Position numbers and translations under genes: made by a program. The notes below the pieces were generated by a model. The model did no database searches. It saw only the letters and a program-made list of their open reading frames with translations, and had not been told where the DNA came from. From Alphaproteobacteria bacterium (GTDB taxonomy: Bacteria > Pseudomonadota > Alphaproteobacteria > DAOWDM01), in assembly GCA_030639035.1 (NCBI GenBank), contig DAOWDM010000191.1, forward strand, positions 1 through 46,351: a DNA stretch of 46,351 nt, given 5' to 3'. Shown here piece after piece: positions 2,944 to 46,351 of the stretch; within the stretch, counting starts at the first letter, position 1; each line of letters starts with the position of its first letter.

Positions 2944-2953
2944 GTGAACTCGC

Positions 2954-4840: not shown

Positions 4841-4887
4841 TTTTATTTTCCTAAAGTTTGGCTAGTACTTAAATATAATCGTATTAC

Positions 4888-4919: not shown

Positions 4920-4932
4920 AACGTCGAGTTGT

Positions 4933-5736: not shown

Positions 5737-5814
5737 ACAAACTTTTCATACTCTTAAAGTATCAACTTATTAACAAATTTTGTCAAGTTTTTCGACATGT
5801 CAAAATAGAAGCGC

Positions 5815-7635
5815 TTATTTTTCAGAGGCAATCCACCAGTTTGTGAAAGAAACTCCTTTTATTGGAGTTTTTTTAGGGATTCCGAACTTGTCCCAATAAG
5901 CTATACGAGTGTATGGAATATGCCAATGAGGTATTACATAATGATTCCATAAAAGCACTCTATCTAAGGCTTTAACTGCCGTTGCAAGCTCTTCTTTATC
6001 AGTAGAAGCGACTATTTTTTTGATAATAGAATCTACTATAGGGCTTTTAATTCCAATATAATTACGGCTTCCGCTATTATCAGCAGATTTTGTTCCCCAA
6101 TAATTATTTTGCTCATTACCTGGAGAAAGAGACTGCCCCCAAACGTTGACTATCATGTCATAATCAAATGAATCGAGTCTGTTTTTATATTGGTTCGTGT
6201 CAACAGCTCTTACCGTTGCTTCTATGCCAAGTTTTTTTAGATTTTTTGCAAAAGGCAGAGCTATGCGTTCCCAAGCCGCAGCACTTGCTGAATTAAGCAT
6301 TATTTCAAATTTGAAAATCTCACCAGTTTTATTGTTTGTAAGTTTTTGGTCTTTTACTTCCCAGCCAGCTTCTTTTAACAGCTTGAAAGCGTTACGTAGG
6401 TTTTTTCTGATATTGCCAGAGCCATTTGATGATGGCGGATTGTATTCTTTTGTAAAAATTTCTTCAGGGAGTTTATCTTTATATTGATTTAATAACTCTA
6501 GTTCTTTTCCTTTTGGCAAACCTGTTGAAGCAAGGTATGAATTGTCAAAATAGCTACGAGTTCGTTTATACTGCCCATAGAAAAGATTTTTGTTCGACCA
6601 TTCAAAATCAAAAGCATAGCCCAAAGCTTCACGGACTTTTCTGTTTTGAAATAGCGGACGGCGGATATTTATTGCAAAGCCCTGCATACCGCTTGGCATT
6701 TGATGAGAGAAAGTAGCTTTTTTAACTCTGCCGTCATTTATTGCAGGAAAGTCGTATGCTGTAGCCCATTTTTTTGATTCAGATTCTATTCTAACGTCAT
6801 AATTTCCAGCTTTGAATGATTCCAAAGCAACGGTTGTGTCTCGATAGTAATCAAAGCGGATATAGTCGAAATTGTTTGCACCTTTGTTTACGACAAGGTC
6901 TTTCCCCCAATAATTTTTATCTCGTTTGTAAGTGATGTATCTGCCAGTCTCGAATTTATCAACAATATAAGCTCCGCTTCCTAAAATTGGCTCAAGTGTT
7001 GTGGTGTCAAACTTTTTTCCTTTCCAATAATGTTTAGGCAATATTGGCATTTGTCCAACAATAAGAGGAAGCTCTCGATTCCCAGTTTTTTTGAAAATGA
7101 ACTTTACATGTTTTGTATCGAGTTTTTCTACTTTTTCAACATCAGCATAATAAGAACGGTAAAATGGAGAGCCTTTTTCTTTTAATATGTTAAAGCTAAA
7201 AATAACATCATCTGCTGTTATAGATTTGCCGTCTTGGAATTTTGCTTCCTGTCTTAGATGAAAAGCTACCCAGCTTCTGTCTTTTGGCATTTCTATGCTT
7301 TCAGCGATTAGCCCATATTCTGTAAAAGCTTCATCATCGGAGCTTACTAGAAGAGTCTCAAAAACAGCCCCAATTCCAGCAGGAGCAATACCTTTGATAA
7401 TAAAAGGATTAAAACTGTCGAATGTTCCGATAGCGTAACGTTTTAAAGTTCCGCCTTTTGAAGCATTAGGGTTTACATAATCAAAATGAGTAAAATCCGC
7501 AGTATATTTAGGAGTTCCATGCATGGCTATTGCGTGAACAGGTTTTATTTCTTCGGCAATTGCTTGACTGCAAAAAAGAAAAATAACAGCAAATAATTTT
7601 AATAATCTCATTTTCATCTCATAAATTTTTGACAC
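5815..7635 (-). CDS. yejA: ABC transporter substrate-binding protein, family 5 (YejA-like)
   Basis: It has a signal peptide, MKMRLLKLFAVIFLFCSQAIA (the start may be Met7 at 7617). The N-terminal block HAIAMHGTPKYTADFTHFDYVNPNASKGGTLKRYAIGTFDSFNPF resembles E. coli YejA as I recall it. The size of about 600 aa is typical. No cognate permease or ATPase genes are adjacent. Confidence 0.8.
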   Translation of the reverse strand: MSKIYEMKMRLLKLFAVIFLFCSQAIAEEIKPVHAIAMHGTPKYTADFTHFDYVNPNASKGGTLKRYAIGTFDSFNPFIIKGIAPAGIGAVFETLLVSSDDEAFTEYGLIAESIEMPKDRSWVAFHLRQEAKFQDGKSITADDVIFSFNILKEKGSPFYRSYYADVEKVEKLDTKHVKFIFKKTGNRELPLIVGQMPILPKHYWKGKKFDTTTLEPILGSGAYIVDKFETGRYITYKRDKNYWGKDLVVNKGANNFDYIRFDYYRDTTVALESFKAGNYDVRIESESKKWATAYDFPAINDGRVKKATFSHQMPSGMQGFAINIRRPLFQNRKVREALGYAFDFEWSNKNLFYGQYKRTRSYFDNSYLASTGLPKGKELELLNQYKDKLPEEIFTKEYNPPSSNGSGNIRKNLRNAFKLLKEAGWEVKDQKLTNNKTGEIFKFEIMLNSASAAAWERIALPFAKNLKKLGIEATVRAVDTNQYKNRLDSFDYDMIVNVWGQSLSPGNEQNNYWGTKSADNSGSRNYIGIKSPIVDSIIKKIVASTDKEELATAVKALDRVLLWNHYVIPHWHIPYTRIAYWDKFGIPKKTPIKGVSFTNWWIASEK

Positions 7636-7772: not shown

Positions 7773-8598
7773 CTGTTCTTGCTAAAGAACAAAATTCTTC
7801 TATTGTTGTATTGTCGGCTCTTTGTTGTGGGTTAACGCCTGCTTTTTCGCATAGTTCTGTTGCGTTTCCGAACGATTTTAAGGAAGAGCGGAGCATTTTT
7901 CTTCTTTGACCAAAAGCTGCTGCTACAACTTTTTCAAGTATGTCAAAATCTGCCTCTGCTAATGGCTTTTTTCGTGGAATTATTTGAACAACAGTAGAGG
8001 TAACCTTGGGCGGAGGAGTAAAAGCACTTGGATTTACATTAAACAGAGGTTTTACCTCACACAGCCATTGCGTCATTATTGACAGTCTGCCGTATGTTTT
8101 ATTTCCTGACGGAGAAACCAAACGGTCTGCGACTTCTTTTTGAAACATCAATGTAAGGCTCTCGAAAGCATCAATGTTTCGCAGCCATTTAACAAGAAGC
8201 ACAGTTGAAATATTATAAGGAAGATTGGCAACTATTCGCCTTGGCTCTACGCCCATAGAGGCAATATCAACTTTTAAAGCATCGTCTTTTAATATTTCCA
8301 AAGCAGGATAAACAGCAATGACTTCCTGCAAAGCATCATAACAGCGAGGGTCTTTTTCTATAGCTATAAGCTGTTTTGTTCCAAGCTCTAGCAAGGCTCG
8401 TGTAAGCCCGCCAGGTCCAGAACCTATTTCTATAACCGTTCCTGTAGAAAAATCACTTTTAATATTGATACTTTCTTGAGCTTCACGTGCAATGCGTCTT
8501 GTCAGGTTCATATCAAGTAAAAAATTCTGCCCCAGCTTTTTTCTCGCAGACAATCCAAAGCGAGCAATAACGTCTCGTAACGGAGGAAGATTATCCAT
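7756..8598 (-). CDS. rsmA: 16S rRNA (adenine1518/1519-N6)-dimethyltransferase RsmA/KsgA
   Basis: It has the KKLGQNFLLD motif and the SAM-binding motif VIEIGSGPGGLT. I prefer the start at ATG 8598 (MDNLPP), 4 nt after the surA stop, although the ORF also allows 8619. The 3' end (stop TGA at 7756-7758) overlaps the 3' 17 nt of the tRNA-Thr on the opposite strand. Confidence 0.9.
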   Translation of the reverse strand: MDNLPPLRDVIARFGLSARKKLGQNFLLDMNLTRRIAREAQESINIKSDFSTGTVIEIGSGPGGLTRALLELGTKQLIAIEKDPRCYDALQEVIAVYPALEILKDDALKVDIASMGVEPRRIVANLPYNISTVLLVKWLRNIDAFESLTLMFQKEVADRLVSPSGNKTYGRLSIMTQWLCEVKPLFNVNPSAFTPPPKVTSTVVQIIPRKKPLAEADFDILEKVVAAAFGQRRKMLRSSLKSFGNATELCEKAGVNPQQRADNTTIEEFCSLARTVVPPM

Positions 8599-8602
8599 GC
8601 TT

Positions 8603-9838
8603 TTACTGCCTGATGTCAATTACGGCTGCTCGGCGTAATTCTCTGAGATGTCGACGTGCTAGTAATTCTAGTCTTTCTGCGGTAATGCGGTTTTTTATTT
8701 GTTCTTTTGAGGGAAGCCCTGATGTTTTTGTTTTTCCACAAACCATAAATATTGCGTCTCCATGCTCCATTGGAACTATTTTACTGGAAACCTCAAGAGG
8801 AAGGTCTTTAATAGCCTCCATAATTACAGGAGGAAGATTTCTTTGTTTAATATCACCTATAGCCCCTGAATTCGGTAAGTTAAATTCTTTTGCCAATCCA
8901 TTGAATTTTTCACATGAGCCGTTTGTAGTAGCAGATTTTTGCATCAAAGCATTTCTATCAACAGAAATTTCAGCTTTGTTTGAAAGGAAAAGCTGGCTTA
9001 AAGTGTATATTGTGTCTCCTTGAGTGCTGGCAGCATCACGGCGTTTCCGTAAATACAGGATATAATATCCGTCTAGCATACGCACAGGTTTTGAAACATC
9101 TCCTGCTTTCATAAGAGCTAGAGTCTCGTCTAGTTCTTCTTCAAGCTGTCCTTGAAATACCCATTCTAAATCACCGCTTTTAGCTGCTGTAGCACTTTGT
9201 GAAAACTGACGAGCAAGCATTCTGAAAGATGCACCTTCTCGAATTTGTTCTATTAGTCTTTTAGACGATTCATATACTTCTTTGTCTCGGGATATATCTT
9301 CTACAGGCAAAAATATTTCCGAGACGAGCATTTTAGGCTTGCCTTGGCTTGCTTTTAGCTTTTCAAGCCGTTCTTCTATCTCGTCATTTCCTACCTGCAC
9401 AGAACGTTTTAAGGTGCGGTTTACAACTTTCCTCCATGCAATATCTGATTTTATTTGAGCTTCAAGAGTTTCTTGTTTAAGCCCTATTTGCTTGACGATT
9501 TGCCGTAATCTTCCTGCTGGTATTCTATTTTGCTTTTCAATAAGTGAGATTGTGCCTTCAATTTCAGCTTTGGAAATATCAAGATTTAGCCGTTCCATTT
9601 CCTGCATTTTAAGCTTTTCATCAATTAAAGCATTAAGAACCTGTATTTTAAGGCGTTTCCGTACTGCTGGCGTATCTTTCAAACCAGAAGTATTAATCAT
9701 TAAATGTATGCGGGCGTTTACATCATAACGTGAAATGACCTCGTCATTAACAATTGATGCTATGCTTAGCACTTGCTGTGCCGTTGCAGGAACAGCAAAA
9801 ACAATAATAAAAATAAATGTAAATAAAAATTTTCGCAT
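8603..9838 (-). CDS. surA: periplasmic chaperone / parvulin-type peptidyl-prolyl isomerase SurA
   Basis: A signal peptide starts at Met20 (MRKFLFTFIFIIVFAVPATA, ATG 9838). A SurA N-domain-like helical region is followed by a parvulin block (GDLEWVFQGQL...DVSKPVRMLDGYYILYL). It lies between lptD and rsmA, as in the canonical proteobacterial cluster. Confidence 0.8.
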   Translation of the reverse strand: MRKFLFTFIFIIVFAVPATAQQVLSIASIVNDEVISRYDVNARIHLMINTSGLKDTPAVRKRLKIQVLNALIDEKLKMQEMERLNLDISKAEIEGTISLIEKQNRIPAGRLRQIVKQIGLKQETLEAQIKSDIAWRKVVNRTLKRSVQVGNDEIEERLEKLKASQGKPKMLVSEIFLPVEDISRDKEVYESSKRLIEQIREGASFRMLARQFSQSATAAKSGDLEWVFQGQLEEELDETLALMKAGDVSKPVRMLDGYYILYLRKRRDAASTQGDTIYTLSQLFLSNKAEISVDRNALMQKSATTNGSCEKFNGLAKEFNLPNSGAIGDIKQRNLPPVIMEAIKDLPLEVSSKIVPMEHGDAIFMVCGKTKTSGLPSKEQIKNRITAERLELLARRHLRELRRAAVIDIRQ

Positions 9839-13393: not shown

Positions 13394-14314
13394 TTACGGC
13401 TTTTTGTCTTCATTGTTTTTTTTTGATAAAGGGTGATGTTCTTTAATAAGATTTCTAAGTTTTTCATCTTGAATATGAGTGTAAATTTCTGTTGATGAAA
13501 TATCTGCATGTCCAAGCATTTGCTGAATGATTCGTAAATCTGCTCCACGTTCAAGAATATGGCTTGCGAAAGAGTGTCTGAAAACATGCGGTGAGATTTT
13601 ATCTACATCGATTTCTGTTTTAAACGCCAGTTTTTTCAGCATTTTGAAAAAACCGTCTCTAGTTAGGTGTCCTGTTTTTCCACGAGAAGGAAAAAGCCAG
13701 CGTGATTTTCTGCCTTTTTTTAAATATGTATTTCTGGTTGAAATATATTCTTTTATTGCGGTTCGTGCTGGAATACTTAGAGGTACGATTCTTTCTTTGT
13801 TGCCTTTGCCTCGTACTATTATTATAGATTTATCGCTTGCAACAGCTGACAAAGGAAGCCCTACAAGTTCAGATACTCTTATTCCGCTTGCGTAAAGAAG
13901 TTCTAAAATAGCGACCATTCTGATGCTTTTTTTCCCAGAGATTTCTTTTGCTATACCAATTAACTTCTGAACTTCGTCTACAGTTAGATATTTAGGCAGA
14001 GGCTTGTTAAAACTAGGGCTTTCTATCCCAGCAACAGGATTATCCTCTCTAATTCCTTCCGAGAAAAGAAATAAAAAGAACTCCCGAATCGCCGATAATC
14101 GTCTTAATTGTGTTTTAGAGGCTAAGTCTCGCTTTTTAAGATGAACTATATAGGAGCGAATATTTATATTTTCTGCATTTTCCAGTTTTTTTTTATTGGC
14201 AGCAAGAAAAGAGGAAAGGTCTTCTAAGTCGTGCTTGTATGCTTCTATTGTTCTTGGGCTTGAACCTCTTTCAGCTTCCATCATTTCTAGGAAACTATCT
14301 ATATATTTTTCCAT
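13394..14314 (-). CDS. xerD: site-specific tyrosine recombinase XerD
   Basis: The N-terminal SAM-like block is RTIEAYKHDLEDL. The catalytic residues are in context: ASGIRVSELVGL (Arg), HVFRHSFASH (HxxR) and LGHADISSTEIYTH (His, Tyr). Its placement next to aroK-aroB is a common alphaproteobacterial arrangement. Confidence 0.85.
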   Translation of the reverse strand: MEKYIDSFLEMMEAERGSSPRTIEAYKHDLEDLSSFLAANKKKLENAENINIRSYIVHLKKRDLASKTQLRRLSAIREFFLFLFSEGIREDNPVAGIESPSFNKPLPKYLTVDEVQKLIGIAKEISGKKSIRMVAILELLYASGIRVSELVGLPLSAVASDKSIIIVRGKGNKERIVPLSIPARTAIKEYISTRNTYLKKGRKSRWLFPSRGKTGHLTRDGFFKMLKKLAFKTEIDVDKISPHVFRHSFASHILERGADLRIIQQMLGHADISSTEIYTHIQDEKLRNLIKEHHPLSKKNNEDKKP

Positions 14315-35570: not shown

Positions 35571-35653
35571 CCGTCATTCTGAATTTAGTTCAGGATCTCC
35601 TTTTTTGGTGGTAAAAGAAGAAAGTAGATTCTGAAACAAGTTCAGAATGACGG
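35571..35653. repeat. palindromic MITE-like element, type A (reverse orientation)
   Basis: The sequence is CCGTCATTCTGAATTTAGTTCAGGATCTCCTTTTTTGGTGG...GATTCTGAAACAAGTTCAGAATGACGG. It has 13-bp terminal inverted repeats (CCGTCATTCTGAA/TTCAGAATGACGG). It is the reverse complement of the 42173 and 43667 copies, with a few substitutions. Confidence 0.8.
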
Positions 35654-36644: not shown

Positions 36645-37391
36645 TTAAATAATTTCCTTGAAAATCTTAACCATTTGCCTAAGCCAGCCAGTTAAATCTT
36701 CAATAACATAATGACAATATTTAGGATTAACTGTTTCCAGTGGAGTTTTATCGTCTTTGTGCCTAAGCCATATTGTAACCATTCCCATGCCTGCCGCTAT
36801 TGGAAGATTTTCATAACTATCTTCAAAAAAAGCAGCCTTTTCAGGGTCGATTTTTAAGTGCTCAAGCATAAGTCTGTATGATTCTAAAGAAGGTTTTGAC
36901 ATATAATTACAAGCATGAATATCAAAAATATCATCAAAATGATGCTTGATGCCTAAAGCTTCGGTAGCACGAGCAGCGTGTCTGGAAGTGCCGTTTGTAA
37001 AAATTACCTTACGACATGGAATTTTTCCTAAAACATCGTCCAAAGCTACATTCTTTTTCAAGCTGCTATAATCTATATCGTGGACGTATCTTAAAAAATC
37101 ATCAGGAATTAAGCCGTTTCTTTCCAGCTCCCCAGTTTCAATAAGACCTTTTAGAGTCGTTCCATATTCAAGATAGCATTTTTTTTGTAAGCTCCATGCT
37201 TCTTCACGCTCCATATGACACATTGTCATTATAAAAGCACACATACGCTGTTCAATCTGTGCAAACAAATCAGATTCCGCTGAATATAGAGTCCTATCTA
37301 AATCAAAAATCCAAGTGTTTACATGATGAAGGCTTCGCCTGTTAAGTATTGGCTTATTTTCTTTTGGTAAAATGCTTATTCTTTTTCTCAT
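36645..37391 (-). CDS. HAD-superfamily pyrimidine 5'-nucleotidase-like hydrolase
   Basis: HAD motif I is WIFDLDRTLY. Motif II-like is IFTNG. A late acidic motif (FFEDS) is present. Confidence 0.8.
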   Translation of the reverse strand: MRKRISILPKENKPILNRRSLHHVNTWIFDLDRTLYSAESDLFAQIEQRMCAFIMTMCHMEREEAWSLQKKCYLEYGTTLKGLIETGELERNGLIPDDFLRYVHDIDYSSLKKNVALDDVLGKIPCRKVIFTNGTSRHAARATEALGIKHHFDDIFDIHACNYMSKPSLESYRLMLEHLKIDPEKAAFFEDSYENLPIAAGMGMVTIWLRHKDDKTPLETVNPKYCHYVIEDLTGWLRQMVKIFKEII

Positions 37392-37503: not shown

Positions 37504-37758
37504 TCATTTATGCCAGAAAATACCTTGATTTCTGTAGCTTTTAAGACGAGAAGAAAGCTTTTTCAAGCGGAGGCTTTGCAATGCTTCTAAGCTGGAAAGT
37601 TTTTCTCGCAAAATAGCTGTTTCATTTCTAGTTTCTTCCGAAAGTTTGCAGAAAAAAGAGCTTAAACCACTGGTGTTGTGTAGCAATGAAGAATTGAAAA
37701 AAGTCCGTTTAGCCCATTTGCTGCAATACACTGTATGTTTTTGATTTTTTTCTATCAT
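37504..37758 (-). CDS. hypothetical small protein downstream of the repressor
   Basis: This is an 84-aa ORF. Its ATG lies 1 nt after the repressor stop. The C-terminal half is helical (LREKLSSLEALQSLRLKKLSSRLK). I recognise no family, and it may not be expressed. Confidence 0.3.
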   Translation of the reverse strand: MIEKNQKHTVYCSKWAKRTFFNSSLLHNTSGLSSFFCKLSEETRNETAILREKLSSLEALQSLRLKKLSSRLKSYRNQGIFWHK

Positions 37759-37759
37759 T

Positions 37760-38392
37760 TTACTGGCTCACCCATAGAACTCTTGCAATCCACATGACTT
37801 TTTCTTTTGGAATAGTGCGGTCAGGGTGTTCAGGATTTAAGGATTTTAATTCTATTTGCATAGCTGTTTCACGCCGCAGTTCTTTGACCATAACTTCGCC
37901 TTCAGAAGTTCTAACCACAACTCTATCGCCACGTCTTATGGAGCTTTCAGGGGAAATAAGAAGCCTGTCTCCGTCTCGATATGCAGGTTCCATACTGCTT
38001 CCGCTTACTTCAAGGGCGTAAGCATTCGGGTCTTTGACATCAGGAAAATCTATGCCGTCCCAGCCTTCACTTCCTGCAGGATAACCAGCGTCATCAAAAT
38101 ACCCATCGTTTCCAGCCTGAGCGAAACCAATCAGCGGAATAGTATGAGCTGGTCCTGTATATTGTCCTTCTTCAGCATAACTTGCGAATTCAAATATTGA
38201 CATTTCAGCCGAACGTAGAAGCTTGTTAATGCTTTCCATGGACGGCCACCGTTTACGCCCCTCGGAACTGAATCGCTTGCTTTTATTAAATGCAGTTGGG
38301 TCAAGCCCAGCTTTTTTTGCAAGAGAAGAGGGGGAAACTCCCTTGATTTCAGCGAGTTTGTCAATGGCTTTCCATATCTCAGAATGTTTCAT
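37760..38392 (-). CDS. HTH + S24 peptidase repressor (CI/LexA-like, COG2932-type)
   Basis: The N-terminal HTH is VSPSSLAKKAGLDPTAFNKSKR. The C-terminal S24 autoprotease has the Ser context VSGSSMEPAYRDGDRLLISP and the Lys context VMVKEL. It is divergent from the phage-like genes. Confidence 0.85.
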   Translation of the reverse strand: MKHSEIWKAIDKLAEIKGVSPSSLAKKAGLDPTAFNKSKRFSSEGRKRWPSMESINKLLRSAEMSIFEFASYAEEGQYTGPAHTIPLIGFAQAGNDGYFDDAGYPAGSEGWDGIDFPDVKDPNAYALEVSGSSMEPAYRDGDRLLISPESSIRRGDRVVVRTSEGEVMVKELRRETAMQIELKSLNPEHPDRTIPKEKVMWIARVLWVSQ

Positions 38393-38431
38393 TGGTAAAT
38401 TCCTTTATTAAGATTTTCTACCTTAACTAGT

Positions 38432-38523
38432 ATAATACATAGGAAGTAAAATTATGCAATAGGAAAATATACTTAAATAAAGGTTGACATTCCTTGCTAC
38501 CAAGCATAGAACGTTGTTTCTAT
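38432..38523. promoter_or_regulatory. putative divergent promoter/operator region (genetic-switch-like)
   Basis: The rightward promoter has TTGACA (38484-38489), a 17-nt spacer and TAGAAC (38507-38512). The leftward promoter has TTGCAT (complement of 38454-38459), a 16-nt spacer and TATTAT (complement of 38432-38437). The half-site-like motif ATAGGAA occurs at 38439 and 38459, exactly 20 bp apart. The imperfect palindrome ATAGAA-N6-TTCTAT (38506-38523) overlaps the rightward -10. Confidence 0.4.
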
Positions 38524-38549
38524 TATTCGTTTAGATTGAAAGGTGAAAA

Positions 38550-38915
38550 ATGTCAGGTAGAAAAATATGTCCTCGTCCAATAGCAGAAACTCAAGTTGCT
38601 TTGTTCGAAAATTCAGAAGAAGCGTGGTTTTGGTATTGTCGTTCTCAAATACTTCGTGATTCAGGAGCAAGGCTTTCAGGAAATGATAATATTGCAGCAC
38701 GTCCTTGTGATGCAGATGATATATACAAAGCTGTAAAGTCTTTGCTTATAGCTGGTCGTTTGCGGAAATATCATTTAAAAACACTGTTGAAATTTGGCTA
38801 TTTATCGACTCCGCCAGATGATAGAGTTTCAGAGCAGAAAAAAGAATCGGGCTGGTGGAAAGAAGCACTGAACTTGCTTTCAACCATACTCCGACAAAAA
38901 AGAATGTTGCTGTAA
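38550..38915 (+). CDS. hypothetical phage-associated early protein
   Basis: This is a 121-aa ORF and the first gene transcribed away from the repressor. Its stop overlaps the next ATG (TAATG at 38913-38917). A possible helix-turn-helix-like segment is DDIYKAVKSLLIAGRLRKYHLKTLLKFG. I recognise no family. Confidence 0.5.
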   Translation: MSGRKICPRPIAETQVALFENSEEAWFWYCRSQILRDSGARLSGNDNIAARPCDADDIYKAVKSLLIAGRLRKYHLKTLLKFGYLSTPPDDRVSEQKKESGWWKEALNLLSTILRQKRMLL

Positions 38916-39337
38916 TGGATAATATCGCAACATATAAAGGCTGGCAGAAAGTATTTGTTGTTTTTAGCGGAGAAACAAATCTGTGGTGGTTGAAAATGCT
39001 AAAATCTGGTTTCAAACATTGCTTTGTTTCTTTGTATGATAATGGGCAGTGGGTGATTGTTGATCCAATGGCTCACCGCACAGAAATTGCGATTCTATCC
39101 GTTTCAGAGGGGTTTGATTTGATTTCTTGGTATAAATCTAAAGGAATGACTGTAGTGGAAACAGAAATTAAAACAGCTGTTTATTATTCTGCTCCATTTG
39201 GCTTTTTTTCTTGCGTAGAAGCAGTTAAGAGAGTTCTTGGTATCCACAAGAGAGGCATATATTCCCCGTATAAGTTGTATTTATTCCTAAAAAAGAAAGA
39301 AAACGGAAAAAAGTCCTTGACATTTGGAAATAAATGA
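38915..39337 (+). CDS. hypothetical protein, possible permuted NlpC/P60-LRAT-like thiol hydrolase
   Basis: The start is set at ATG 38915 (MDNIATYKGW), coupled to the upstream stop. The His block KHCFVSLYDNGQWVIVDP resembles the LRAT/H-Rev107 block HWAIYVGDGYVVHLAP as I recall it. A later Cys block, FFSCVEAVKRVLG, resembles the NCEHFV position. Confidence 0.5.
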   Translation: MDNIATYKGWQKVFVVFSGETNLWWLKMLKSGFKHCFVSLYDNGQWVIVDPMAHRTEIAILSVSEGFDLISWYKSKGMTVVETEIKTAVYYSAPFGFFSCVEAVKRVLGIHKRGIYSPYKLYLFLKKKENGKKSLTFGNK

Positions 39338-39410
39338 GATACTAATAATTCATCGAACGGGACAATTGCGTCTAAAACGTTTTTTGTTTTTACTTTTGCT
39401 CTTTCCTTCA

Positions 39411-39511
39411 CTGTCATTCTGAATTTAATTCAGAATCTATCTTTTTTAGATGTGAGTGAAAATGGATCCTGAATCAAGTTCAGGATGACAGTGGAGTTTG
39501 ACAGAATGACG
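39411..39511. repeat. palindromic MITE-like element, type A variant plus extra terminus fragment
   Basis: 39411-39491 is CTGTCATTCTGAATTTAATTCAGAATC...GGATCCTGAATCAAGTTCAGGATGACAG. It is in the same orientation as the 35571 copy. A GTGGAGTT tail follows, then a second terminus fragment, ACAGAATGACG (39501-39511). Confidence 0.75.
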
Positions 39512-39536
39512 TAAGTGGAGTTCGCAACAACAATAG

Positions 39537-39568
39537 AAAGCTGGGAGGGAAACCTTTCAGCTTTTTTT
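39537..39568 (+). terminator. strong rho-independent terminator 31 nt upstream of the portal ATG
   Basis: AAAGCTGGGAGG-GAAA-CCTTTCAGCTTT forms a 12-bp stem (two G-U pairs) with a GAAA tetraloop (39537-39564). It runs directly into a T7 tract (39562-39568). Confidence 0.7.
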
Positions 39569-39599
39569 ATGGAAATTTTTTATTTGGAGAATCTGTCGT

Positions 39600-41066
39600 A
39601 TGGACGAGAAAATTGAAGTCCTTATCAGAAGATATAACAAAGCCAAAGAAAGACGCTCATCATGGGAAAGTCATTGGCGTGAATGTTATGAATACGCTCT
39701 GCCACAAAGGGGTGGTGTTCTTTCGTCTGAATCAATCGGAGGAAAAAAGACCGATAAATTATTTGACGGTACTGCTCCTGATGCGGTTGATCAGCTTTCG
39801 GCAAGCCTTTTGTCTCAGTTGACACCGCCTTGGGCTAGGTGGTTTGGGCTGACGGCTGGCTCTGATTTATCTCCTGAAGAGCGAGATGAAGCAGGTGAAA
39901 TGCTGGACAAGGCAGGGGATATTTTACGCTCTAATTTTGACCGTTCAAATTTTGCGGTTGAGATGCACCAGTGTTTTTTAGACTTGGTAACGGTAGGAAC
40001 TGCTTCATTGCTTTTTGAAGAGTCTCCTTTGGGTGAGTCTAGTGCTTTTCGTTTTACGGCAGTTCCTTTGTCAGAATTAGCTGTTGAAGAAGGTGCTGGA
40101 GGGCGGATTGATACGACTTTTAGGCGTACAGAAATAACTTTGGAAATATTAAAAGTTCGTTTTCCAGCAGCAGAACTTCCGCCAGAACTTCTAGCGAGAA
40201 TGAAAAAAGAACCTGATTACAGGGTTGTTGTTATTGAAGCTGTTGTTCCTAGAATGACAGAAACAGGGCAGAACGGCTTTTCATATACGGCTTTTATTGA
40301 AGAAGATGCGGTAATTTTGAAAGAGGGAGTTTTTGACAACTCACCGTTTATAAATTTCCGCTGGCTTAAAGCTCCCGGTGAGATTTACGGCAGGTCGCCT
40401 GTAATGAAGTCTCTGCCTGATATAAAAACTGCCAACAAAGTTGTAGAGCTTGTTTTGAAGAATGCAACTATTGCAGTAACTGGAATTTGGCAGGCGGACG
40501 ATGACGGAGTGCTGAATCCTGCAAATATTAAGCTTGTTCCAGGTTCGATAATTCCAAAGGCTGTTGGTTCAAAAGGACTTACTCCTCTTGAAGCTCCAGG
40601 GCGTTTTGATATTTCTGAAATTGTGCTTGATGATTTAAGAAGCCGTATCCGTCATGCAATGCTTGTTGACCGTCTTGCACAGACAAATGCTCCTGCAATG
40701 TCTGCAACGGAAGTTTTAGAACGTTCTGCGGAAGTCGGGCGGATTCTGGGGGCTACTTACGGACGGCTTCAGTCAGAACTGCTTACTCCTCTGGTGTTGA
40801 GGGCGGTTGCTATTTTGCGGAGGCGTGGTGAAATTCCTGATTTAATAGTCGATGGTCGAATGGTTGAACTTCAGTACAAGTCACCTCTTGCATTGCAGCA
40901 GTCAAGACAGGACGCAAATAATATTGTCATGTGGCTTGATACGGTATCGAAAATGGGGGAGGAAGCTGCAAAAACCATAAATTCAGGTGCTGCTGCTCGT
41001 TGGCTAGGGCGGATTTTAGGAGTTCCTTCCGAACTCATAAACGAAACAGGAGGTGAAAATGTTTGA
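39600..41066 (+). CDS. phage portal (head-to-tail connector) protein, T7 gp8-like
   Basis: The N-terminal block is RRSSWESHWRECYEYALPQR. The blocks GEIYGRSPV and RLQSELLTPLVLR parallel T7 gp8 GESYGRSYI and ILSQELQLPLVRV, recalled from memory. The size is 488 aa. It is the first gene of the virion module. Confidence 0.88.
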   Translation: MDEKIEVLIRRYNKAKERRSSWESHWRECYEYALPQRGGVLSSESIGGKKTDKLFDGTAPDAVDQLSASLLSQLTPPWARWFGLTAGSDLSPEERDEAGEMLDKAGDILRSNFDRSNFAVEMHQCFLDLVTVGTASLLFEESPLGESSAFRFTAVPLSELAVEEGAGGRIDTTFRRTEITLEILKVRFPAAELPPELLARMKKEPDYRVVVIEAVVPRMTETGQNGFSYTAFIEEDAVILKEGVFDNSPFINFRWLKAPGEIYGRSPVMKSLPDIKTANKVVELVLKNATIAVTGIWQADDDGVLNPANIKLVPGSIIPKAVGSKGLTPLEAPGRFDISEIVLDDLRSRIRHAMLVDRLAQTNAPAMSATEVLERSAEVGRILGATYGRLQSELLTPLVLRAVAILRRRGEIPDLIVDGRMVELQYKSPLALQQSRQDANNIVMWLDTVSKMGEEAAKTINSGAAARWLGRILGVPSELINETGGENV

Positions 41067-41313
41067 ATCAGGCTGGTCGTGGATAAATGGAACTTCTGAG
41101 GAGGAAAAAAATCCTGATGAGAAAGATGTAACTGTCAGTTTTGCAAGGTGTTTTTCCAGCAGAGACGGCGAGAAAGCTCTTTCATACTTAAAGTCTATAA
41201 CGTCAGGGCGTTGCTTATCACCTGAAGTCAATGCAGAAGTCCTACGGCATTTAGAAGGACAGCGATGCCTTGTTTCCCATATTTCAATGCTGATTGAAAA
41301 AGGGAAAAGTTAA
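41059..41313 (+). CDS. hypothetical small phage protein
   Basis: The ATG at 41059 has AGGAGG 5 nt upstream and overlaps the portal stop (ATGTTTGA). The product is about 84 aa. I recognise no family. Confidence 0.45.
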   Translation: MFESGWSWINGTSEEEKNPDEKDVTVSFARCFSSRDGEKALSYLKSITSGRCLSPEVNAEVLRHLEGQRCLVSHISMLIEKGKS

Positions 41314-41345
41314 GGTGAAACGTTAGTGTCTGAATTCACTTCGTT

Positions 41346-41430
41346 GTCATTCTCAGCCCAAAGGGCTGGGAATCCAGACTTACTAAACAGAAAAAGGACT
41401 GGATTCCCAAGCCTACGGCTTGAGAATGAC
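41346..41430. repeat. palindromic MITE-like element, type B (full length)
   Basis: The sequence is GTCATTCTCAGCC-CAAAGGGCTGGGAATCCAGAC...GGACTGGATTCCCAAGCCTACGGCTTGAGAATGAC. It has nested inverted repeats: outer GTCATTCTCA/TGAGAATGAC and inner GGGAATCCAG/CTGGATTCCC. Confidence 0.8.
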
Positions 41431-41482
41431 GATTTGTGGTAGTCATTAAAAAACAAAAAATAACCAAAAGGAGAAAAAACTT

Positions 41483-42136
41483 ATGAATAACGAAAATATT
41501 ACTCAGAAACCTGAGAACGTACCTGAAAAATTTTGGGATAATGAGGTCGGTTCAGTTCGGATTGAATCATTGCTTAAATCATATCAAGAACTTGAAAAGA
41601 AATTAGGTTCTATGGTTTCTATGCCTAAAGTGCCTGAAAAGGCTGAAGATTACTCTATTGAAATAAGCCATGAGAAGCTTGAGGAAGATAAAGAAGTAAA
41701 TGAAATGCTTCACAAAGCAGGTTTTACTCCTGAACAGGTACAGCTTGTTTATGACTTGGCGGCTGAAAAACTTATGCCTGTAATTGAAAATATTGCAGCT
41801 GAATATGACACTAATAATCAGATTGAAAAACTTGTAAATCATTTCGGCAGTAAAGAAAAATGGGAGCAGGTTTCAAGACAGCTTAATGCTTGGGGACAGA
41901 AGAACCTGTCGGAAAACATTTTAGAAGCTCTTAGTTCTTCATATGAAGGAGTAATAACGCTTCACAAAATGATGACCTCAGAAGAACCAAGCATTAACGG
42001 AGGAAGTCAGCCAACAGACGGGCTGTTAAATGAACAACAGCTTAAAGGCATGATGAAAGATGCCAAATACTGGAGAGACGGCGACCCTGCTTATGTTGCG
42101 AAGGTAACGGCAGGATTTAAACGGCTTTATAAGTAG
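41483..42136 (+). CDS. probable capsid scaffolding protein
   Basis: This is an acidic, helical 217-aa protein located between the portal and major capsid genes, which is the gp9 position in T7-type modules. The assignment is positional and compositional. Confidence 0.6.
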   Translation: MNNENITQKPENVPEKFWDNEVGSVRIESLLKSYQELEKKLGSMVSMPKVPEKAEDYSIEISHEKLEEDKEVNEMLHKAGFTPEQVQLVYDLAAEKLMPVIENIAAEYDTNNQIEKLVNHFGSKEKWEQVSRQLNAWGQKNLSENILEALSSSYEGVITLHKMMTSEEPSINGGSQPTDGLLNEQQLKGMMKDAKYWRDGDPAYVAKVTAGFKRLYK

Positions 42137-42172
42137 AAAAAATCGTTTAACTCCGCTGTTACCACACCACTA

Positions 42173-42362
42173 CCGTCATGCTGAACTTGTTTCAGTATCC
42201 ACTTTTCTTCTTTTTCCACCAAAAAAGGAGATCCTGAAATGAATTCAGGATGACAGCGTGGTTGGTGGAGACAACAAACTCTCTGCCGTCATATTGAGGA
42301 GCAAAGCGACGTGAATATCTCGCATAAGAGATTCTCACGGGCTAAAGCCCTCAGAATGACGG
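42173..42362. repeat. two adjacent palindromic MITE-like elements (type A 42173-42257, type C 42286-42362)
   Basis: Type A is CCGTCATGCTGAACTTGTTTCAGTATCC...AAAAAAGGAGATCCTGAAATGAATTCAGGATGACAGC. Type C is CCGTCATATTGAGGAGCAAAGCGACG...CACGGGCTAAAGCCCTCAGAATGACGG. Both are followed by GTGG-rich tails (GTGGTTGGTGGAG and TGGAGTTGGTGGAGGGG) and preceded by CCACACCAC. Confidence 0.8.
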
Positions 42363-42513
42363 TGGAGTTGGTGGAGGGGTAATTTAAGGACAATCGGAAA
42401 ATCCGACCCTTTGTATATGCACATTGTTTGTGGCGGATATGACCTTATCCACAACTACAGGCAATGTTTTTTCAAAAACTATAAATTTTTAACAAACAAA
42501 GGGAGGGGACATA

Positions 42514-43347
42514 ATGTCCACTACAGTAGATCAATCATTTGTAAAACAGTTTGAAGCAGAAGTTCATATTGCATATCAGCAGATGGGCTCAAAACTAAGA
42601 GGAACAGTTCGTTCTAAAAACAACGTAAAAGGCTCTTCAACTACTTTTCAGAAAGTAGGCAAAGGAACTGCAAGCGTTAAGGCAAGGCATGGTCTTGTGC
42701 CTGTGATGAGTATTGACCACACTCCTGTTGAGTGTTCGCTATATGATTATTATGCAGGCGATTGGGTTGATGCTTTGGACGAGTTAAAAGTCAGCCTTGA
42801 TGAACGCCGTGTAATTGCAAGTGCTGGAGCTTATGCTTTGGGCAGAAAAACGGACGACCTGATTATTGACGGTCTAGCAGATGCTACAGAGACAGTTGGC
42901 GACTATTCTACAGGTCTTACAAAAGGCTTGATTCTTTCAGCTTTTGAGAAACTCAACAATGTAGATGTTCCTGATGACGGACAGCGTTTTGGTATTGTTG
43001 GAGCTCATCAATGGAATGAACTTCTTAACATTTCTGAGTTTTCAGATTCTGGCTTTATCGGGGAAGAATACCCATGGCTCAAAGGTACTGAAAGCCGTAA
43101 ATGGCTTGGTATAGTATGGATTTTACATACTGGTTTGCCTTTGGCTGATACGGATAATCGAGACTGTTTCATCTATCACAAAACGGCTGTAGGTCATGCT
43201 TCAGGGCAGGACGTGAAAACTGATGTTACATGGCATGGTGATCACGCAGCTCATTTCGTTAACAATTCAATGAGTCAAGGTGCTTCTCTTATCGATGCAA
43301 CAGGTATCGTTAAGATTAAAGTCGATGATGACGCAGCTATTAGCTAA
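42514..43347 (+). CDS. major capsid protein, T7 gp10-like (short form)
   Basis: It has a strong RBS (AAAGGGAGGGG). The N-terminal block FVKQFEAEVHIAYQ..RGTVRSKNNVKGSSTTFQKVGKGTA parallels T7 gp10 FLKVFGGEVLTAFAR..RHMVRSISSGKSAQFPVLGRTQA. The later block IYHKTAVGHA parallels FMHRSAVGTV. Both T7 sequences are from memory. Confidence 0.85.
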   Translation: MSTTVDQSFVKQFEAEVHIAYQQMGSKLRGTVRSKNNVKGSSTTFQKVGKGTASVKARHGLVPVMSIDHTPVECSLYDYYAGDWVDALDELKVSLDERRVIASAGAYALGRKTDDLIIDGLADATETVGDYSTGLTKGLILSAFEKLNNVDVPDDGQRFGIVGAHQWNELLNISEFSDSGFIGEEYPWLKGTESRKWLGIVWILHTGLPLADTDNRDCFIYHKTAVGHASGQDVKTDVTWHGDHAAHFVNNSMSQGASLIDATGIVKIKVDDDAAIS

Positions 43348-43362
43348 TAGGAGAATAAAAAT

Positions 43363-43632
43363 ATGGCTTTTTCAAACAATAATTTGAGTGTGCTTAGTTA
43401 CGCAAACGGTTTCACTCTATGGCATTACGTTACAACCGATACTGCTGCAACCGTTGATACCTCAGGGTATTTCAACAACGCATCAGACGTTGTCCGAGTT
43501 GGGGATATTGTTATCGCTAATGCAGACACAGCAGGAACTCCTGCAACAGGACTAATGCTGATTTCAAGCAACGACAACGGTGTTGTTGATGTGGACGATA
43601 TGACAGGTATTGGCGGAACTGATACGGATTAA
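43363..43632 (+). CDS. hypothetical small virion-module protein
   Basis: This is an 89-aa Thr/Asp/Gly-rich ORF 15 nt after the capsid stop. It shares its 15-nt translation initiation region with the gp11-like gene. Confidence 0.5.
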   Translation: MAFSNNNLSVLSYANGFTLWHYVTTDTAATVDTSGYFNNASDVVRVGDIVIANADTAGTPATGLMLISSNDNGVVDVDDMTGIGGTDTD

Positions 43633-43666
43633 TTGTATTGTTCCTACCACTACTAGTCCCCCTCTT

Positions 43667-43757
43667 CGTCATGCTGAACTTGTTTCAGTATCTACTTTCT
43701 TCGTTTTATACCAAAAAGGAGATCCTGAACTAAATTCAGGATGACGGTGGGGGGGGG
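43667..43757. repeat. palindromic MITE-like element, type A, with G9 tail
   Basis: 43667-43692 (CGTCATGCTGAACTTGTTTCAGTATC) is identical to 42174-42199. The element ends at ...GGAGATCCTGAACTAAATTCAGGATGACGG (43747). It is flanked by CCCCC (43657-43661) on the left and by a G9 homopolymer (43749-43757) on the right. Confidence 0.8.
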
Positions 43758-43820
43758 TAATGACGTGTGTGTGGTGTGAGGACAGTAATAAAAATTTCAA
43801 TACAATAGGAGAATAAAAGC

Positions 43821-44390
43821 ATGGCACTTAGCAGTATTGCGTTGTGTTCTCGGGCTTTGTTGAAGGTTGGGGCTAATACTATATCATCTTTTGATGAGGG
43901 AACGGCAGAGGCTGAAATTGCGGTTAATTTGTATCCGTCAGTCAGAGATGCTTTGATTTCTTCTCACCCTTGGAGCTTTGCTCTTGCACAGGCTTCATTG
44001 CCTAGATTAACGGCAGAACCTGTTGCAGATTTTGACTTTGCGTTTCAGCTTCCAACTGATTTCTTGCGTGTAATGTCAGCAGGAATAGCAGGGCGGGGAC
44101 GTGGAGCAAATTATCGGCTTGCTGAAAATAAGCTACATACAAACGTATCGCAGGTAGTTCTTACATACGTTTTCAGACCTGATGAGATGATTTTTCCTGC
44201 ATTTTTTGATCAGGTGCTTATTTCAAGACTGGCAGCGGAATTCTGCCTGCCTTTGACTGAAAGCACCAGCAGGGCTGAATTTCTTATCAAAATTTCAGAA
44301 GAAGAATTTAGAAGGGCAAAACTCATTGATGCTCAACAGGGAATCCCTGAGGCTATTGATGACTTTCCATTGATAGAGGTGCGTTCATGA
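43821..44390 (+). CDS. tail tubular protein A, T7 gp11-like
   Basis: The size is 189 aa. The N-terminal pattern ALLKVGANTISSFDEGTAEAEIAVNLYPSVRDALISSHPWSFA parallels T7 gp11 [43 protein letters not shown], recalled from memory. It sits in the gp11 position after the capsid gene. Confidence 0.72.
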   Translation: MALSSIALCSRALLKVGANTISSFDEGTAEAEIAVNLYPSVRDALISSHPWSFALAQASLPRLTAEPVADFDFAFQLPTDFLRVMSAGIAGRGRGANYRLAENKLHTNVSQVVLTYVFRPDEMIFPAFFDQVLISRLAAEFCLPLTESTSRAEFLIKISEEEFRRAKLIDAQQGIPEAIDDFPLIEVRS

Positions 44391-46291
44391 GCAGACTTTT
44401 TAGTGCTAAAACCAATTTTTCAGCTGGAGAATTAGCACCTGAAATGCTTGGGCGTGGAGATTTGCAAGCCTATGCAAACGGAGCTATGAAGCTAAAAAAC
44501 GTCTTTATTCACCCGACAGGAGGAGTTTCCAGACGGTCAGGGCTTCGTTATATAGGTGCCGCTCAGGGAAAAGGGCGTTTAATAGCTTTTGAATTCAACA
44601 CAGAACAGGCTTATTTGCTGGTATTTACAAATCAGCGAGTTGATGTTTTCAAAGACGGTGAAAATGTTGCAAACTTTGCTGTTCCATGGACGGAAGAGCA
44701 AATAAAGCAGATTAATTGGGCTCAAAGTGCGGACTCTTTGCTTGTAGTTCACCCTGACGTAAGCCCTAGGAAAATAACTAGAACTTCTCACACAGACTGG
44801 TCAATAAGCGAATGGCAGTTTTTTGAAAAAGACAACTGCATCAATCAGCCTTATTACAAGTTTGCAGGTGTGGACGTTACGATTCAAACGAGTGCTACAA
44901 CTGGAACTGTAACGCTTACCTCTTCGGCTTCGGTTTTTACATCTAATCATGTAGGGGTGCGAGTTCGGTTTTTAGGTGGAGAGGCGGAAATAACTTCTTA
45001 TTCTTCAGGAACTTCAGTTCAGGCTTCTGTGAAAAAGACTTTTTCTGGCACAGGCACAACTAAAGACTGGAAAGAGCAGAGTTTTTCAGATGTTCATGGT
45101 TTTGCAGCTTCGGTTACTCATCATCAGGATAGGCTTGTAATAGGCGGTTCAAGAGATTTGCCTAACCATTTATGGTTTTCTAAAACTTCGGATTTGATGA
45201 ATTTCGATTTAGGGGAAGGCTTGGACGATGAGTCTATAGAGTTCTCTATTCTATCTGACCAAGTGAACGCTATTCGAGCGGTTTTCTCAGGAAGACATTT
45301 GCAGGTGTTTACATCTGGTGCGGAATGGATGGTTTCAGGCGACCCTTTGACTCCTTCGGCTATTCAGTTGAAGCGTCAAACTAGGGTAGGCTCTGCTGTA
45401 AATAAGTATATTCCGCCAGTTGATGTAGACGGAGCGACTTTGTTTATATCAGGAAACGGCTTGGAGCTTCGTGAATTTCTGTTCACTGATGTAGAGCAGG
45501 CATATCAGGCTAATGACTTGGCTATGCTCTCTAGGCATTTGATGAATAGCCCTGTTGATCAGGATTATGATTCACAACGCAGACTGCTAACAATTGTTAT
45601 GGAAAACGGTAATATCGCAACCGTAACGAATTATAGAGCTGAACAAGTTACAGCTTGGACAGGACATTCTACTGATGGAAAATTCCTTTCCGTCGCAACA
45701 ATAGGCAGTGACACTTATGTTCTGGTTGAACGTGGGGAGAATGTTTTTGTTGAAATTTTCGATGATGACTTTGGAACAGACTGCGGAATAACTGGAGAAG
45801 ATGAAACTCCAAAAGACGTATGGTCGGGGCTTTCTCATCTTGAAGGAAAGACTGTAAAAGTGCTGGCTGATGGGGCGGTTGTACCTAATCAGACTGTTAC
45901 AGATGGAATTATTACGCTTCCGTATCCAGTTAGCAATATACAAGTTGGTTTGGCTTATACACATATAATATCACCGCTTCCGCCAATGATTACGGCGGCA
46001 GGCAGTGTTAGACCTCCTAAAAGCGTACGTCTTGTAGAGGCCTCTTTCAGAGTGCTTAAAACTTCATCTATGGAAGTTGATACGGGTCGAGGAATTAAGC
46101 CTGTGCTTTTGAAAAGATTGGGAGTTGAAGGCGTGCTTGATTCTGCTCCGTCAGAATATTCTGGCGATGTTCGTATTAGAGCTTTTGGGTGGATAAGAGA
46201 TTTTATGCAGCCGTCATGGAAAATAGAGGGAGATAAACCTCTTTCCTGCACGGTTCTTTCGGTAACAACAGAAATGAAGGTGAATGACTGA
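44387..46291 (+). CDS. tail tubular protein B, T7 gp12-like
   Basis: It overlaps the gp11-like stop (ATGA at 44387-44390). The 634-aa protein is beta-rich. The N-terminal pattern is NFSAGELAPEMLGRGDLQAYANGAMKLKNVFIHPTGGVSRRSGL. Its position and size are consistent with a nozzle/tubular B protein. Confidence 0.68.
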   Translation: MSRLFSAKTNFSAGELAPEMLGRGDLQAYANGAMKLKNVFIHPTGGVSRRSGLRYIGAAQGKGRLIAFEFNTEQAYLLVFTNQRVDVFKDGENVANFAVPWTEEQIKQINWAQSADSLLVVHPDVSPRKITRTSHTDWSISEWQFFEKDNCINQPYYKFAGVDVTIQTSATTGTVTLTSSASVFTSNHVGVRVRFLGGEAEITSYSSGTSVQASVKKTFSGTGTTKDWKEQSFSDVHGFAASVTHHQDRLVIGGSRDLPNHLWFSKTSDLMNFDLGEGLDDESIEFSILSDQVNAIRAVFSGRHLQVFTSGAEWMVSGDPLTPSAIQLKRQTRVGSAVNKYIPPVDVDGATLFISGNGLELREFLFTDVEQAYQANDLAMLSRHLMNSPVDQDYDSQRRLLTIVMENGNIATVTNYRAEQVTAWTGHSTDGKFLSVATIGSDTYVLVERGENVFVEIFDDDFGTDCGITGEDETPKDVWSGLSHLEGKTVKVLADGAVVPNQTVTDGIITLPYPVSNIQVGLAYTHIISPLPPMITAAGSVRPPKSVRLVEASFRVLKTSSMEVDTGRGIKPVLLKRLGVEGVLDSAPSEYSGDVRIRAFGWIRDFMQPSWKIEGDKPLSCTVLSVTTEMKVND

Positions 46292-46351
46292 TGGGAGTAG
46301 TACCAATAATAACAGTAGCAGTTGCGGCTTTTACCGCAAATGAAACTATAA
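46291..46351 (+). CDS. start of next virion-module ORF (3' end outside window)
   Basis: The ATG overlaps the preceding stop (TGATG at 46289-46293). Translation gives MGVVPIITVAVAAFTANETI..., which is hydrophobic. Only 20 codons are visible. Confidence 0.3.
   Translation, partial: MGVVPIITVAVAAFTANETI

Follow-up and report, generated by a model that had tools for sequence, protein, structure and literature searches.

A probably domesticated, T7-type podovirus-derived particle locus beside an S24 repressor in Alphaproteobacteria

Virion and packaging genes of the locus

We analyzed a phage-derived locus at the right-hand end of a 46,351-nucleotide (nt) stretch of alphaproteobacterial DNA (contig DAOWDM010000191.1, assembly GCA_030639035.1), referred to below as the window. 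The listing of open reading frames (ORFs), together with profile searches, gave the order of a minus-strand repressor and then, across an intergenic gap of 157 nt, a plus-strand operon with genes for a 121-amino-acid (aa) protein, a 140-aa protein, a portal, a Bbp19-like protein, a scaffold, a capsid protein, an 89-aa protein, an adaptor and a nozzle. All ORFs named in a preliminary description of this DNA were found at the coordinates that it gave, and its divergent helix-turn-helix (HTH) and S24 repressor next to the operon was recovered as well; the length of the second small ORF was revised from 160 to 140 aa, the likelier start being ATG 38915 in a TAATG coupling. The genes are as follows.

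37760..38392, minus: CI/LexA-type autocleaving repressor (HTH plus S24 peptidase), 210 aa; PF00717, E 6.6e-26; phrog_4 'transcriptional repressor', E 6e-30
38550..38915, plus: 121-aa family-specific protein, the first gene of the operon; predicted four-helix bundle, AlphaFold2 (AF2) model with a predicted local distance difference test (pLDDT) score of 88
38915..39337, plus: 140-aa family-specific protein; TAATG start overlap; His35-Cys36 and Cys100 invariant in alignments
39600..41066, plus: portal, T7 gp8 type; PF12236, E 2e-141
41053..41313, plus: Bbp19-like small phage protein; PF25181, E 4.6e-11
41483..42136, plus: scaffolding protein, T7 gp9 type; PF05396 (T7 capsid assembly protein), E 9.6e-20
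42514..43347, plus: major capsid protein; PF19821, E 1.2e-69; phrog_3437, E 8e-77
43363..43632, plus: 89-aa conserved protein; phrog_18004, E 6e-24
43821..44390, plus: adaptor (tail tubular protein A), T7 gp11 type; phrog_394 'tail protein', E 1e-46
44387..46291, plus: nozzle (tail tubular protein B), T7 gp12 type; phrog_376, E 1e-148
46291..46351, plus, running off the window edge: start of a 184-aa small internal-virion-like protein (gp14-size); TGATG overlap with the nozzle gene

Comparison with solved structures matched the portal to those of LME-1 (1e-30) and T7 (6r21, 2e-13), the capsid protein to PDB 9eg4, the LME-1 capsid protein (7.5e-26), and the nozzle profile to the Carin-1 'Tail Nozzle' 8ck1 (3e-93) and the LME-1 nozzle (7e-51), while the matches of the adaptor were weak (Carin-1 connector, 1e-4; LME-1 adaptor, 9e-4). 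The capsid protein of LME-1 builds a T=7 head (PMC12407071). A PDB sequence search with the 89-aa protein returned no match; by position only, its gene having the same place as the LME-1 decoration gene, it is a possible head decoration protein. No prohead protease family was detected by Pfam or PHROG in the operon, or among the listed families of internal ORFs in relatives.

Genes beyond the window edge were read from a second assembly of the same organism, here L001, located through the exact nozzle protein. On L001 the nozzle gene is followed by genes for the 184-aa protein (complete at 3948-4502, with weak matches to phrog_805 and phrog_418 'internal virion protein'), a 441-aa tail fiber with a fiber N-terminal domain (phrog_1640), a 115-aa protein, a 106-aa protein that matches phrog_31793 and occupies the small-terminase position, and a 493-aa large terminase, which lies outside the window (phrog_38, E 1e-84; T7 terminase 4bij, 5.5e-21). 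The downstream search that the preliminary description had proposed for terminase and fiber thus recovered both, plus the small internal protein. To follow these genes in other organisms, we fetched 160 loci of relatives, 80 from genomes and 80 from IMG/VR, and mapped them by tblastn; the family of the 184-aa protein was found 3' of the nozzle in 35 loci, and the Bbp19-like gene is kept 3' of the portal in 57. The one phage genome read for comparison, that of pelagiphage Hodr (34 kb), which is among the nearest cultured relatives, encodes proteins of 160, 784 and 1248 aa 3' of its nozzle, the sizes of T7 gp14, gp15 and gp16. In contrast, the interval between nozzle and fiber on L001 holds the 184-aa protein and no ejection protein of gp15/gp16 type, and no family of gp15/gp16 size was present among the listed internal ORF families of the relatives.

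Altogether, the locus encodes a T7-type virion, evident by a gp8-type portal, a gp9-type scaffold, a capsid protein of HK97 fold, an adaptor and nozzle, and a gp19-type large terminase. The T7-type assignment made in the preliminary description holds for portal, scaffold, capsid, adaptor, nozzle, fiber N terminus and large terminase. It stands as a statement about virion architecture but not about closest kinship, the nearest cultured-phage relatives being HTVC010P-type pelagiphages (portal 31-38% identical) rather than T7.

Repressor and divergent control region

The repressor gene was considered as the host lexA and rejected, its TIGR00498 score being 35.8 bits against a cut-off of 110.95. 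The parts needed for self-cleavage are intact, the Ala93-Gly94 site and the dyad of Ser133 and Lys170 being kept in 30-31 of 31 repressor orthologues. The gene stands at the same place in 42 of 86 sequences, a set made up of the window and 85 fetched loci and including several that are cut short upstream. In the window, the region between the repressor and the operon carries the following elements.

38393..38549, unstranded: divergent control region, with TAGGAA boxes, a -35 element and an imperfect palindrome
38440-38445 and 38460-38465: TAGGAA boxes
38484-38489: -35 element TTGACA, conserved in the family
38507-38522: imperfect palindrome TAGAAC-GTTG-TTTCTA

The divergent intergenic region measures 122-195 nt in 38 loci and is alignable across guanine-plus-cytosine (GC) contents of 38-72%. 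An exact-palindrome scan for a shared operator gave a weak result (AAATA-N12-TATTT in 6 of 39 loci); more informative was the multiple alignment of the 38 loci, which revealed TAGGA-type palindromes and a conserved TTGAC (-35). An exact GTTC-N7-GTTC or GAAC-N7-GAAC lies 28-43 nt past TTGAC in 28 of these 38 promoters, and five further promoters carry a LexA box with one mismatch; as a control, shuffled sequences gave 0.11 exact boxes on average and never more than 2. The GTTC-N7-GTTC motif is the SOS box of Caulobacter (PMC9578287). In most relatives this LexA box, of the canonical alphaproteobacterial kind, overlies the predicted -10/start region of the operon promoter. From this arrangement we infer a dual SOS control in the relatives, in which the box would serve host LexA and the palindromes the repressor that the element itself encodes.

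The two small genes that open the operon are specific to the family. The 121-aa gene adjoins the repressor in 41 loci and has 313 representatives at E≤1e-3. For neither the 121-aa nor the 140-aa protein did Pfam at E≤1 give a match shared by more than one member, and profile searches of the PDB with both gave nothing better than E 0.58. A Foldseek search with the AF2 model of the 121-aa protein found nothing significant, the weak best match being the antiterminator Q21 of phage 21 (E 0.8, template modeling score 0.42-0.44). A role as a regulator is possible for this protein, and a genuine likeness to Q21 would account for read-through in an operon that is long and dotted with hairpin repeats. 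The model of the 140-aa protein (AF2 pLDDT 84.5) likewise gave no significant Foldseek match, the best being weak, cysteine-hydrolase-like matches at E 0.35.

Relatives, chromosomal surroundings and inheritance

Searches with the nozzle protein returned 3591 homologues at E≤1e-10, many of them on chromosomal contigs (0.2-3.3 Mb). Among the best 120, which are 56-63% identical, all but one partial sequence have lengths of 627-643 aa. Relatives of the nozzle are encoded by at least 577 stretches of GTDB species-representative genomes, scanned at one genome per species, and on at least 594 IMG/VR contigs called proviruses, many of which are 12-13 kb and reach no farther than from the 121-aa gene to one gene past the terminase. 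The hosts include Magnetospirillum molischianum, M. fulvum, Magnetospirillum sp. LM-5, Paramagnetospirillum caucaseum, Caenispirillum salinarum (complete chromosome), C. bisanense and Terasakiella, as well as many Micavibrio, Thalassospiraceae and Rhodospirillales metagenome-assembled genomes; homologues of the large terminase extend the list to P. magneticum AMB-1, Magnetospira QH-2 and Telmatospirillum. Record MT838907.1, a 5-kb 'Bacteriophage sp.' sequence from human feces, encodes a portal 61.5% identical to that of the window; it probably derives from a chromosomal element of this kind and is not a phage genome.

One gene order, from repressor to holin, recurs in the 160 fetched loci. Its left half comprises the minus-strand repressor and, divergent from it, the 121-aa, 140-aa, in some loci a 67-aa, portal, Bbp19, scaffold, capsid, 89-aa, adaptor and nozzle genes; its right half continues with a small internal protein where present, one or more fibers, small terminase, large terminase, a protein of about 100 aa, a Hydrolase_2 endolysin and a holin with three transmembrane segments (PF11351). 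The 32 loci with both ends present measure 13.3-20.4 kb between repressor and endolysin. The locus in the magnetotactic model strain P. magneticum AMB-1 (AP007255, 4679067-4700551) has genes for the nozzle, fibers, both terminase subunits, a 99-aa protein and the holin.

At the left boundary in the window, neither an integrase nor an att site was seen. The nearest host-type gene, encoding a HAD hydrolase at 36645-37391, lies 112 nt left of a small ORF next to the repressor, in agreement with the distance of about 100 nt given in the preliminary description, and farther left lie genes for a 2-hydroxyacid dehydrogenase, dapD and dapE. The boundary without integrase or tRNA reported there was also found by us: the sole tRNA in the window is a tRNA-Thr at 7697, and the sole tyrosine recombinase is encoded 23 kb away at 13394-14314 on the minus strand. 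The latter was rejected as an integrase of the element, as it is the housekeeping XerD (equivalog TIGR02225, 332 bits, above the cut-off). A phage-type single-subunit RNA polymerase and a DNA-metabolism module, which mark the Autographiviridae (the T7 group in the narrow sense), are absent from the 46,351 nt.

The relatives gave the same picture. The 150 flanking ORFs of the 32 complete loci are housekeeping genes or the holin, among them NAD kinase (eight times), SAICAR synthetase (six times), isocitrate dehydrogenase, methylmalonyl-CoA mutase, SRP54 and LysRS, and no integrase, replication or RNA polymerase family was found among the 25 of 88 flank families listed. The 77 internal ORFs outside the core are mixed cargo (peptidoglycan-binding, MCP-signal, metallo-beta-lactamase fold and Sel1 proteins, methyltransferases and a SocA antitoxin), and no family of those three kinds occurred among the 25 of 42 internal families listed. 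Terminal direct repeats were not detected in 61 whole IMG/VR contigs, and no near-identical DNA was found in cultured phages. The integrase, replication genes and phage RNA polymerase that the preliminary description had proposed to look for were accordingly missing from the window and from the listed families of the fetched relatives.

Several signs point to long vertical residence; they consist of flank conservation, correlated pairwise identities, GC content and clustering by genus. Gene families of the flanks recur within clades: the same pair of genes stands left of the repressor in ten Micavibrio-like species, another left flank is common to Terasakiella and two further lineages, and a right-flank gene of about 720 aa occurs in eight lineages. 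Pairwise identity of the nozzle follows that of a flanking host gene, F22 (r=0.89, 45 pairs), with the nozzle the more conserved of the two (72% vs 59%), and nozzle identity also correlates with that of portal (0.81), scaffold (0.84), capsid (0.74) and repressor (0.82). Within named genera the minimum nozzle identity is 0.63, above the between-genera maximum of 0.58. The GC content of the element matches that of its flanks (r=0.979 over flank values of 0.44-0.69, mean element excess 1.1%); in the window the values are 0.415 for the element and 0.374 for the flank.

The comparison of the locus between related genomes, also proposed in the preliminary description, revealed conserved synteny and purifying selection on capsid- and portal-type genes. 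Median ratios of nonsynonymous to synonymous substitution rates (dN/dS) were 0.11-0.21 for seven genes, including the repressor, with many species pairs at dS>1; the Terasakiella loci L042, L057 and L085, which have one left flank in common, differ in their capsid genes by dS of 1.1-1.8. The ORFs recovered from the fetched loci are free of stops. Genes are intact even where the cluster is broken up into separate loci, as in L005 and L171, or rearranged (terminase ... capsid-nozzle, small terminase, portal-scaffold), as in L040, L047 and L075. Structural genes are likewise intact in Magnetospirillum-like genomes whose clusters carry unrelated inserted genes: in L170 a 1352-aa HTH_3 protein gene (2828-6886, minus) between the 89-aa and adaptor genes, and in L003 an MCP-signal-like gene and a radical SAM gene (5886-6632, minus, and 8374-9408, plus).

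The junction between scaffold and capsid is an insertion hot spot across the family, relatives having whole genes inserted there. A conserved minus-strand gene of about 130 aa lies between scaffold and capsid in 16 Micavibrio-group loci (for instance L076, 7061-7471). By eye its product has an RxxxR...DxSxxG, PilZ-like motif, for which profiles gave no confirmation and a PDB search was uninformative; if real, the motif would suggest an input from cyclic di-GMP.

In the window itself, the operon is interrupted by host-type repeats that resemble repetitive extragenic palindromic (REP) sequences and miniature inverted-repeat transposable elements (MITEs), as the preliminary description had reported; we found copies in three operon gaps and one between host genes.

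39412..39496, unstranded: REP/MITE-like double-hairpin repeat of host type, copy 1 in the operon
42174..42261, unstranded: REP/MITE-like repeat, copy 2, at the scaffold-capsid junction
43667..43752, unstranded: REP/MITE-like repeat, copy 3
35573-35651: REP/MITE-like repeat, host copy between host genes

The repeat is about 85 nt long and of the type ATCCTGAA-N5-TTCAGGATGAC, with 12 pattern matches in the window versus 0.01 expected. An inverted repeat is also present at 41346-41430.

Interpretation and comparison with known systems

Two readings had been left side by side in the preliminary description, a temperate prophage whose other modules lie downstream and a chromosomal, SOS-inducible particle locus. 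The former is contradicted in the 32 complete relatives, whereas the latter gained support from the architecture of the 160 loci, their flanks, GC content, clustering by genus, selection, and genes that stay intact despite splitting. We consider it likely that this is a domesticated particle locus maintained by its host, because a recurrent gene set occurs without integrase or replication genes, housekeeping flanks are kept within clades, GC contents match, selection is purifying, and genes are intact in split clusters. The fuller statement, that the locus is an ancient, vertically inherited, SOS-controlled particle system domesticated from a T7-type podovirus, with the window holding its left part, about two-thirds, is probable. 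The best reading of its gene content is that the module lost, or never kept, genes for integration, replication and transcription and the large ejection proteins.

In such a system, DNA damage would activate RecA and lead the repressor, and in relatives host LexA as well, to cleave itself, whereupon the operon would be transcribed in a subpopulation of cells. T7-like particles would then assemble, the terminase would fill them with DNA, and the cell would lyse. Since no replication or excision function is present and insertions and splitting are tolerated, the packaged DNA would most likely be that of the host chromosome, a working like that of a gene transfer agent (GTA). With the ejection proteins shed, entry of the DNA would depend on the recipient, as with the GTA of the RcGTA type. 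That the locus transfers host DNA in this manner is a proposal drawn from gene content, to which we give slightly less than even credence.

A number of observations weigh against this interpretation. The window's own promoter has no LexA box but instead the palindrome TAGAAC-GTTG-TTTCTA, so that control there probably lies with the S24 repressor alone. The flanks of the window (HAD hydrolase, dapD) were found at no other fetched locus. Contigs that carry the exact nozzle or large-terminase protein end in the terminase gene or 150 bp past it, short of the right end, so phage modules may still lie downstream in the window organism. Because 25 of the 88 flank families were listed, a lone integrase in one locus may have escaped; in AMB-1 a tyrosine integrase does lie 2.6 kb past the holin, after three host-type genes including those for rubrerythrin and thioredoxin, and probably belongs to a separate island. 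Genes of real phages are also under purifying selection, and terminases of the T7 type normally work on replicated concatemers. Furthermore, the nearest solved capsid relative forms a T=7 head; such a head, unlike that of RcGTA, would hold more DNA than a locus of 13-20 kb, so the element may be able to package itself.

The evidence for domestication also fits a particle selected for something other than DNA transfer, such as an SOS-triggered killer of the bacteriocin kind, altruistic lysis, or release of DNA or protein cargo. SOS/LexA control is typical of tailocins and colicins, and with no ejection proteins of gp15/gp16 size, delivery of DNA may be impaired. Nonetheless, head, scaffold, portal and both terminases, needless for a tail-only killer, are under purifying selection, and no toxin module is conserved in the cluster, making this alternative unlikely. 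A structural module beside a CI-like repressor with no other modules, in regions that IMG/VR tools label proviruses, might also suggest the remnant of a prophage, cryptic or defective and now without function, left by one temperate podovirus family that infects often. Stop-free ORFs and dN/dS of 0.11-0.21 even at dS>1 argue otherwise, as do the loss of an identical gene set everywhere, flanks kept within clades, fully ameliorated GC content, proteins that group by host genus, and a conserved regulatory region with its LexA box; we regard a remnant as very unlikely.

Temperate podophages with a T7-like virion do exist, Legionella LME-1 being an example, and the unseen right end in the window organism would leave room for a functional prophage of this kind with its integrase, replication and other genes beyond the contig ends. 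This, too, appears to have very little probability, since housekeeping genes follow the holin and precede the repressor in the 32 complete relatives, the left end carries no integrase and XerD is the only recombinase, host REP repeats lie inside the operon, and proteins of gp15/gp16 size are missing. By its small size of 13-20 kb and its own capsid and terminase genes, the locus resembles a capsid-forming phage satellite akin to the phage-inducible chromosomal islands (PICIs), which needs a helper phage for spread. We consider a satellite extremely improbable, as integrase, primase/Rep and att are lacking, the position is fixed within clades, and the cluster has its own adaptor, nozzle, fiber and lysis genes, which capsid-forming PICIs lack.

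Known GTA lineages are few, and outside Brachyspira those studied in detail have long-tailed phages as ancestors. The present locus would, judged by its genes, be a GTA- or viriform-like domesticated phage, and it is a candidate for membership among GTAs. Only with some hesitation do we suggest that it may represent a new, ancient GTA (viriform) lineage that arose from a T7-type podovirus and has an origin separate from RcGTA, BaGTA and VSH-1, passed on by descent in Rhodospirillales-like and Micavibrio-like Alphaproteobacteria, magnetotactic model strains among them, under its own repressor and host LexA, and devoid of ejection proteins. No published description of the element was found in a search of the full-text literature.

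With the RcGTA type (Rhodogtaviriformidae), the element has in common a phage-derived head-tail-packaging cluster fixed in the chromosome with no integration or replication genes; vertical inheritance, purifying selection and host-matched GC content; and a PF11351 'GTA_holin_3TM' holin with an endolysin, together with SOS/LexA input. The two differ in ancestry, RcGTA descending from an HK97-type siphovirus whereas the element is of T7-type podovirus origin (PF12236 portal, gp9-type scaffold without prohead protease, adaptor and nozzle, T7-type large terminase); in regulation, RcGTA using CtrA/GafA and the element having a CI-like S24 repressor of its own beside the operon; and possibly in head geometry, which is T=3 oblate in RcGTA and T=7 in the nearest solved capsid relative of the element. 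The 10-kb particles of Azospirillum are reportedly siphovirus-like. Published work has linked them to RcGTA-like gene stretches.

BaGTA of Bartonella and FpGTA of Faecalibacterium are, similarly, independent domestications of other phage lineages, but they involve other phyla or genera and other gene families; a run-off replication origin, to which BaGTA is coupled, was not seen at the element. FpGTA is podovirus-like, is split over two loci, and was called the first podovirus-like GTA-like element in January 2026 (PMC12946183), from which it follows that none was then known in Alphaproteobacteria. The R/F-type pyocins (tailocins) resemble the element as domesticated phage structural and lysis genes induced via RecA-mediated repressor cleavage, yet they lack head, portal and terminase, all of which the element keeps.

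Among phages, LME-1, Carin-1, HTVC010P-type pelagiphages and BPP-1-like phages have the same virion order of portal, scaffold, capsid, decoration, adaptor, nozzle and fiber, and LME-1, Carin-1 and the pelagiphages have homologous proteins (PDB 9efk, 9eg4, 8ck0 and 8ck1 and the pelagiphage portals). Such T7-like podophages carry replication genes, and the temperate ones integrases as well. All of these phages are replicating genomes of 30-40 kb, whereas the element has no such genes and, on the present evidence, does not move between hosts.

If true, hundreds of alphaproteobacterial species would have a T7-type particle system fixed in their genomes, one more instance in which a phage was independently domesticated. 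More bacteria would then be expected to exchange host DNA by way of capsids, and the locus would be a clear example of SOS-coupled control that combines a dedicated repressor with a LexA box. The hypothesis is directly testable, since the carriers P. magneticum AMB-1, M. molischianum DSM 120, Caenispirillum salinarum and Terasakiella pusilla are cultivable and genetically tractable. Moreover, provirus-calling pipelines have placed hundreds of these loci in IMG/VR as viruses, which may inflate prophage counts for the taxa concerned.

Between the repressor and the host genes of the window lies one further small ORF.

37504..37758, minus: orphan ORF of 84 aa, its start 1 nt past the repressor stop, translationally coupled

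This ORF had no Pfam or PHROG match and no tblastn match across the 80 related genome loci; its membership in the element is uncertain, and it may be lineage-specific or spurious. The remaining 33 kb of the window consist of housekeeping genes, which also include those for shikimate kinase and 3-dehydroquinate synthase. At the start of the window, 111-1505 encodes a LonB-like AAA+ protease (PF13654, PF20436, Lon_C), unrelated to the phage-derived locus.

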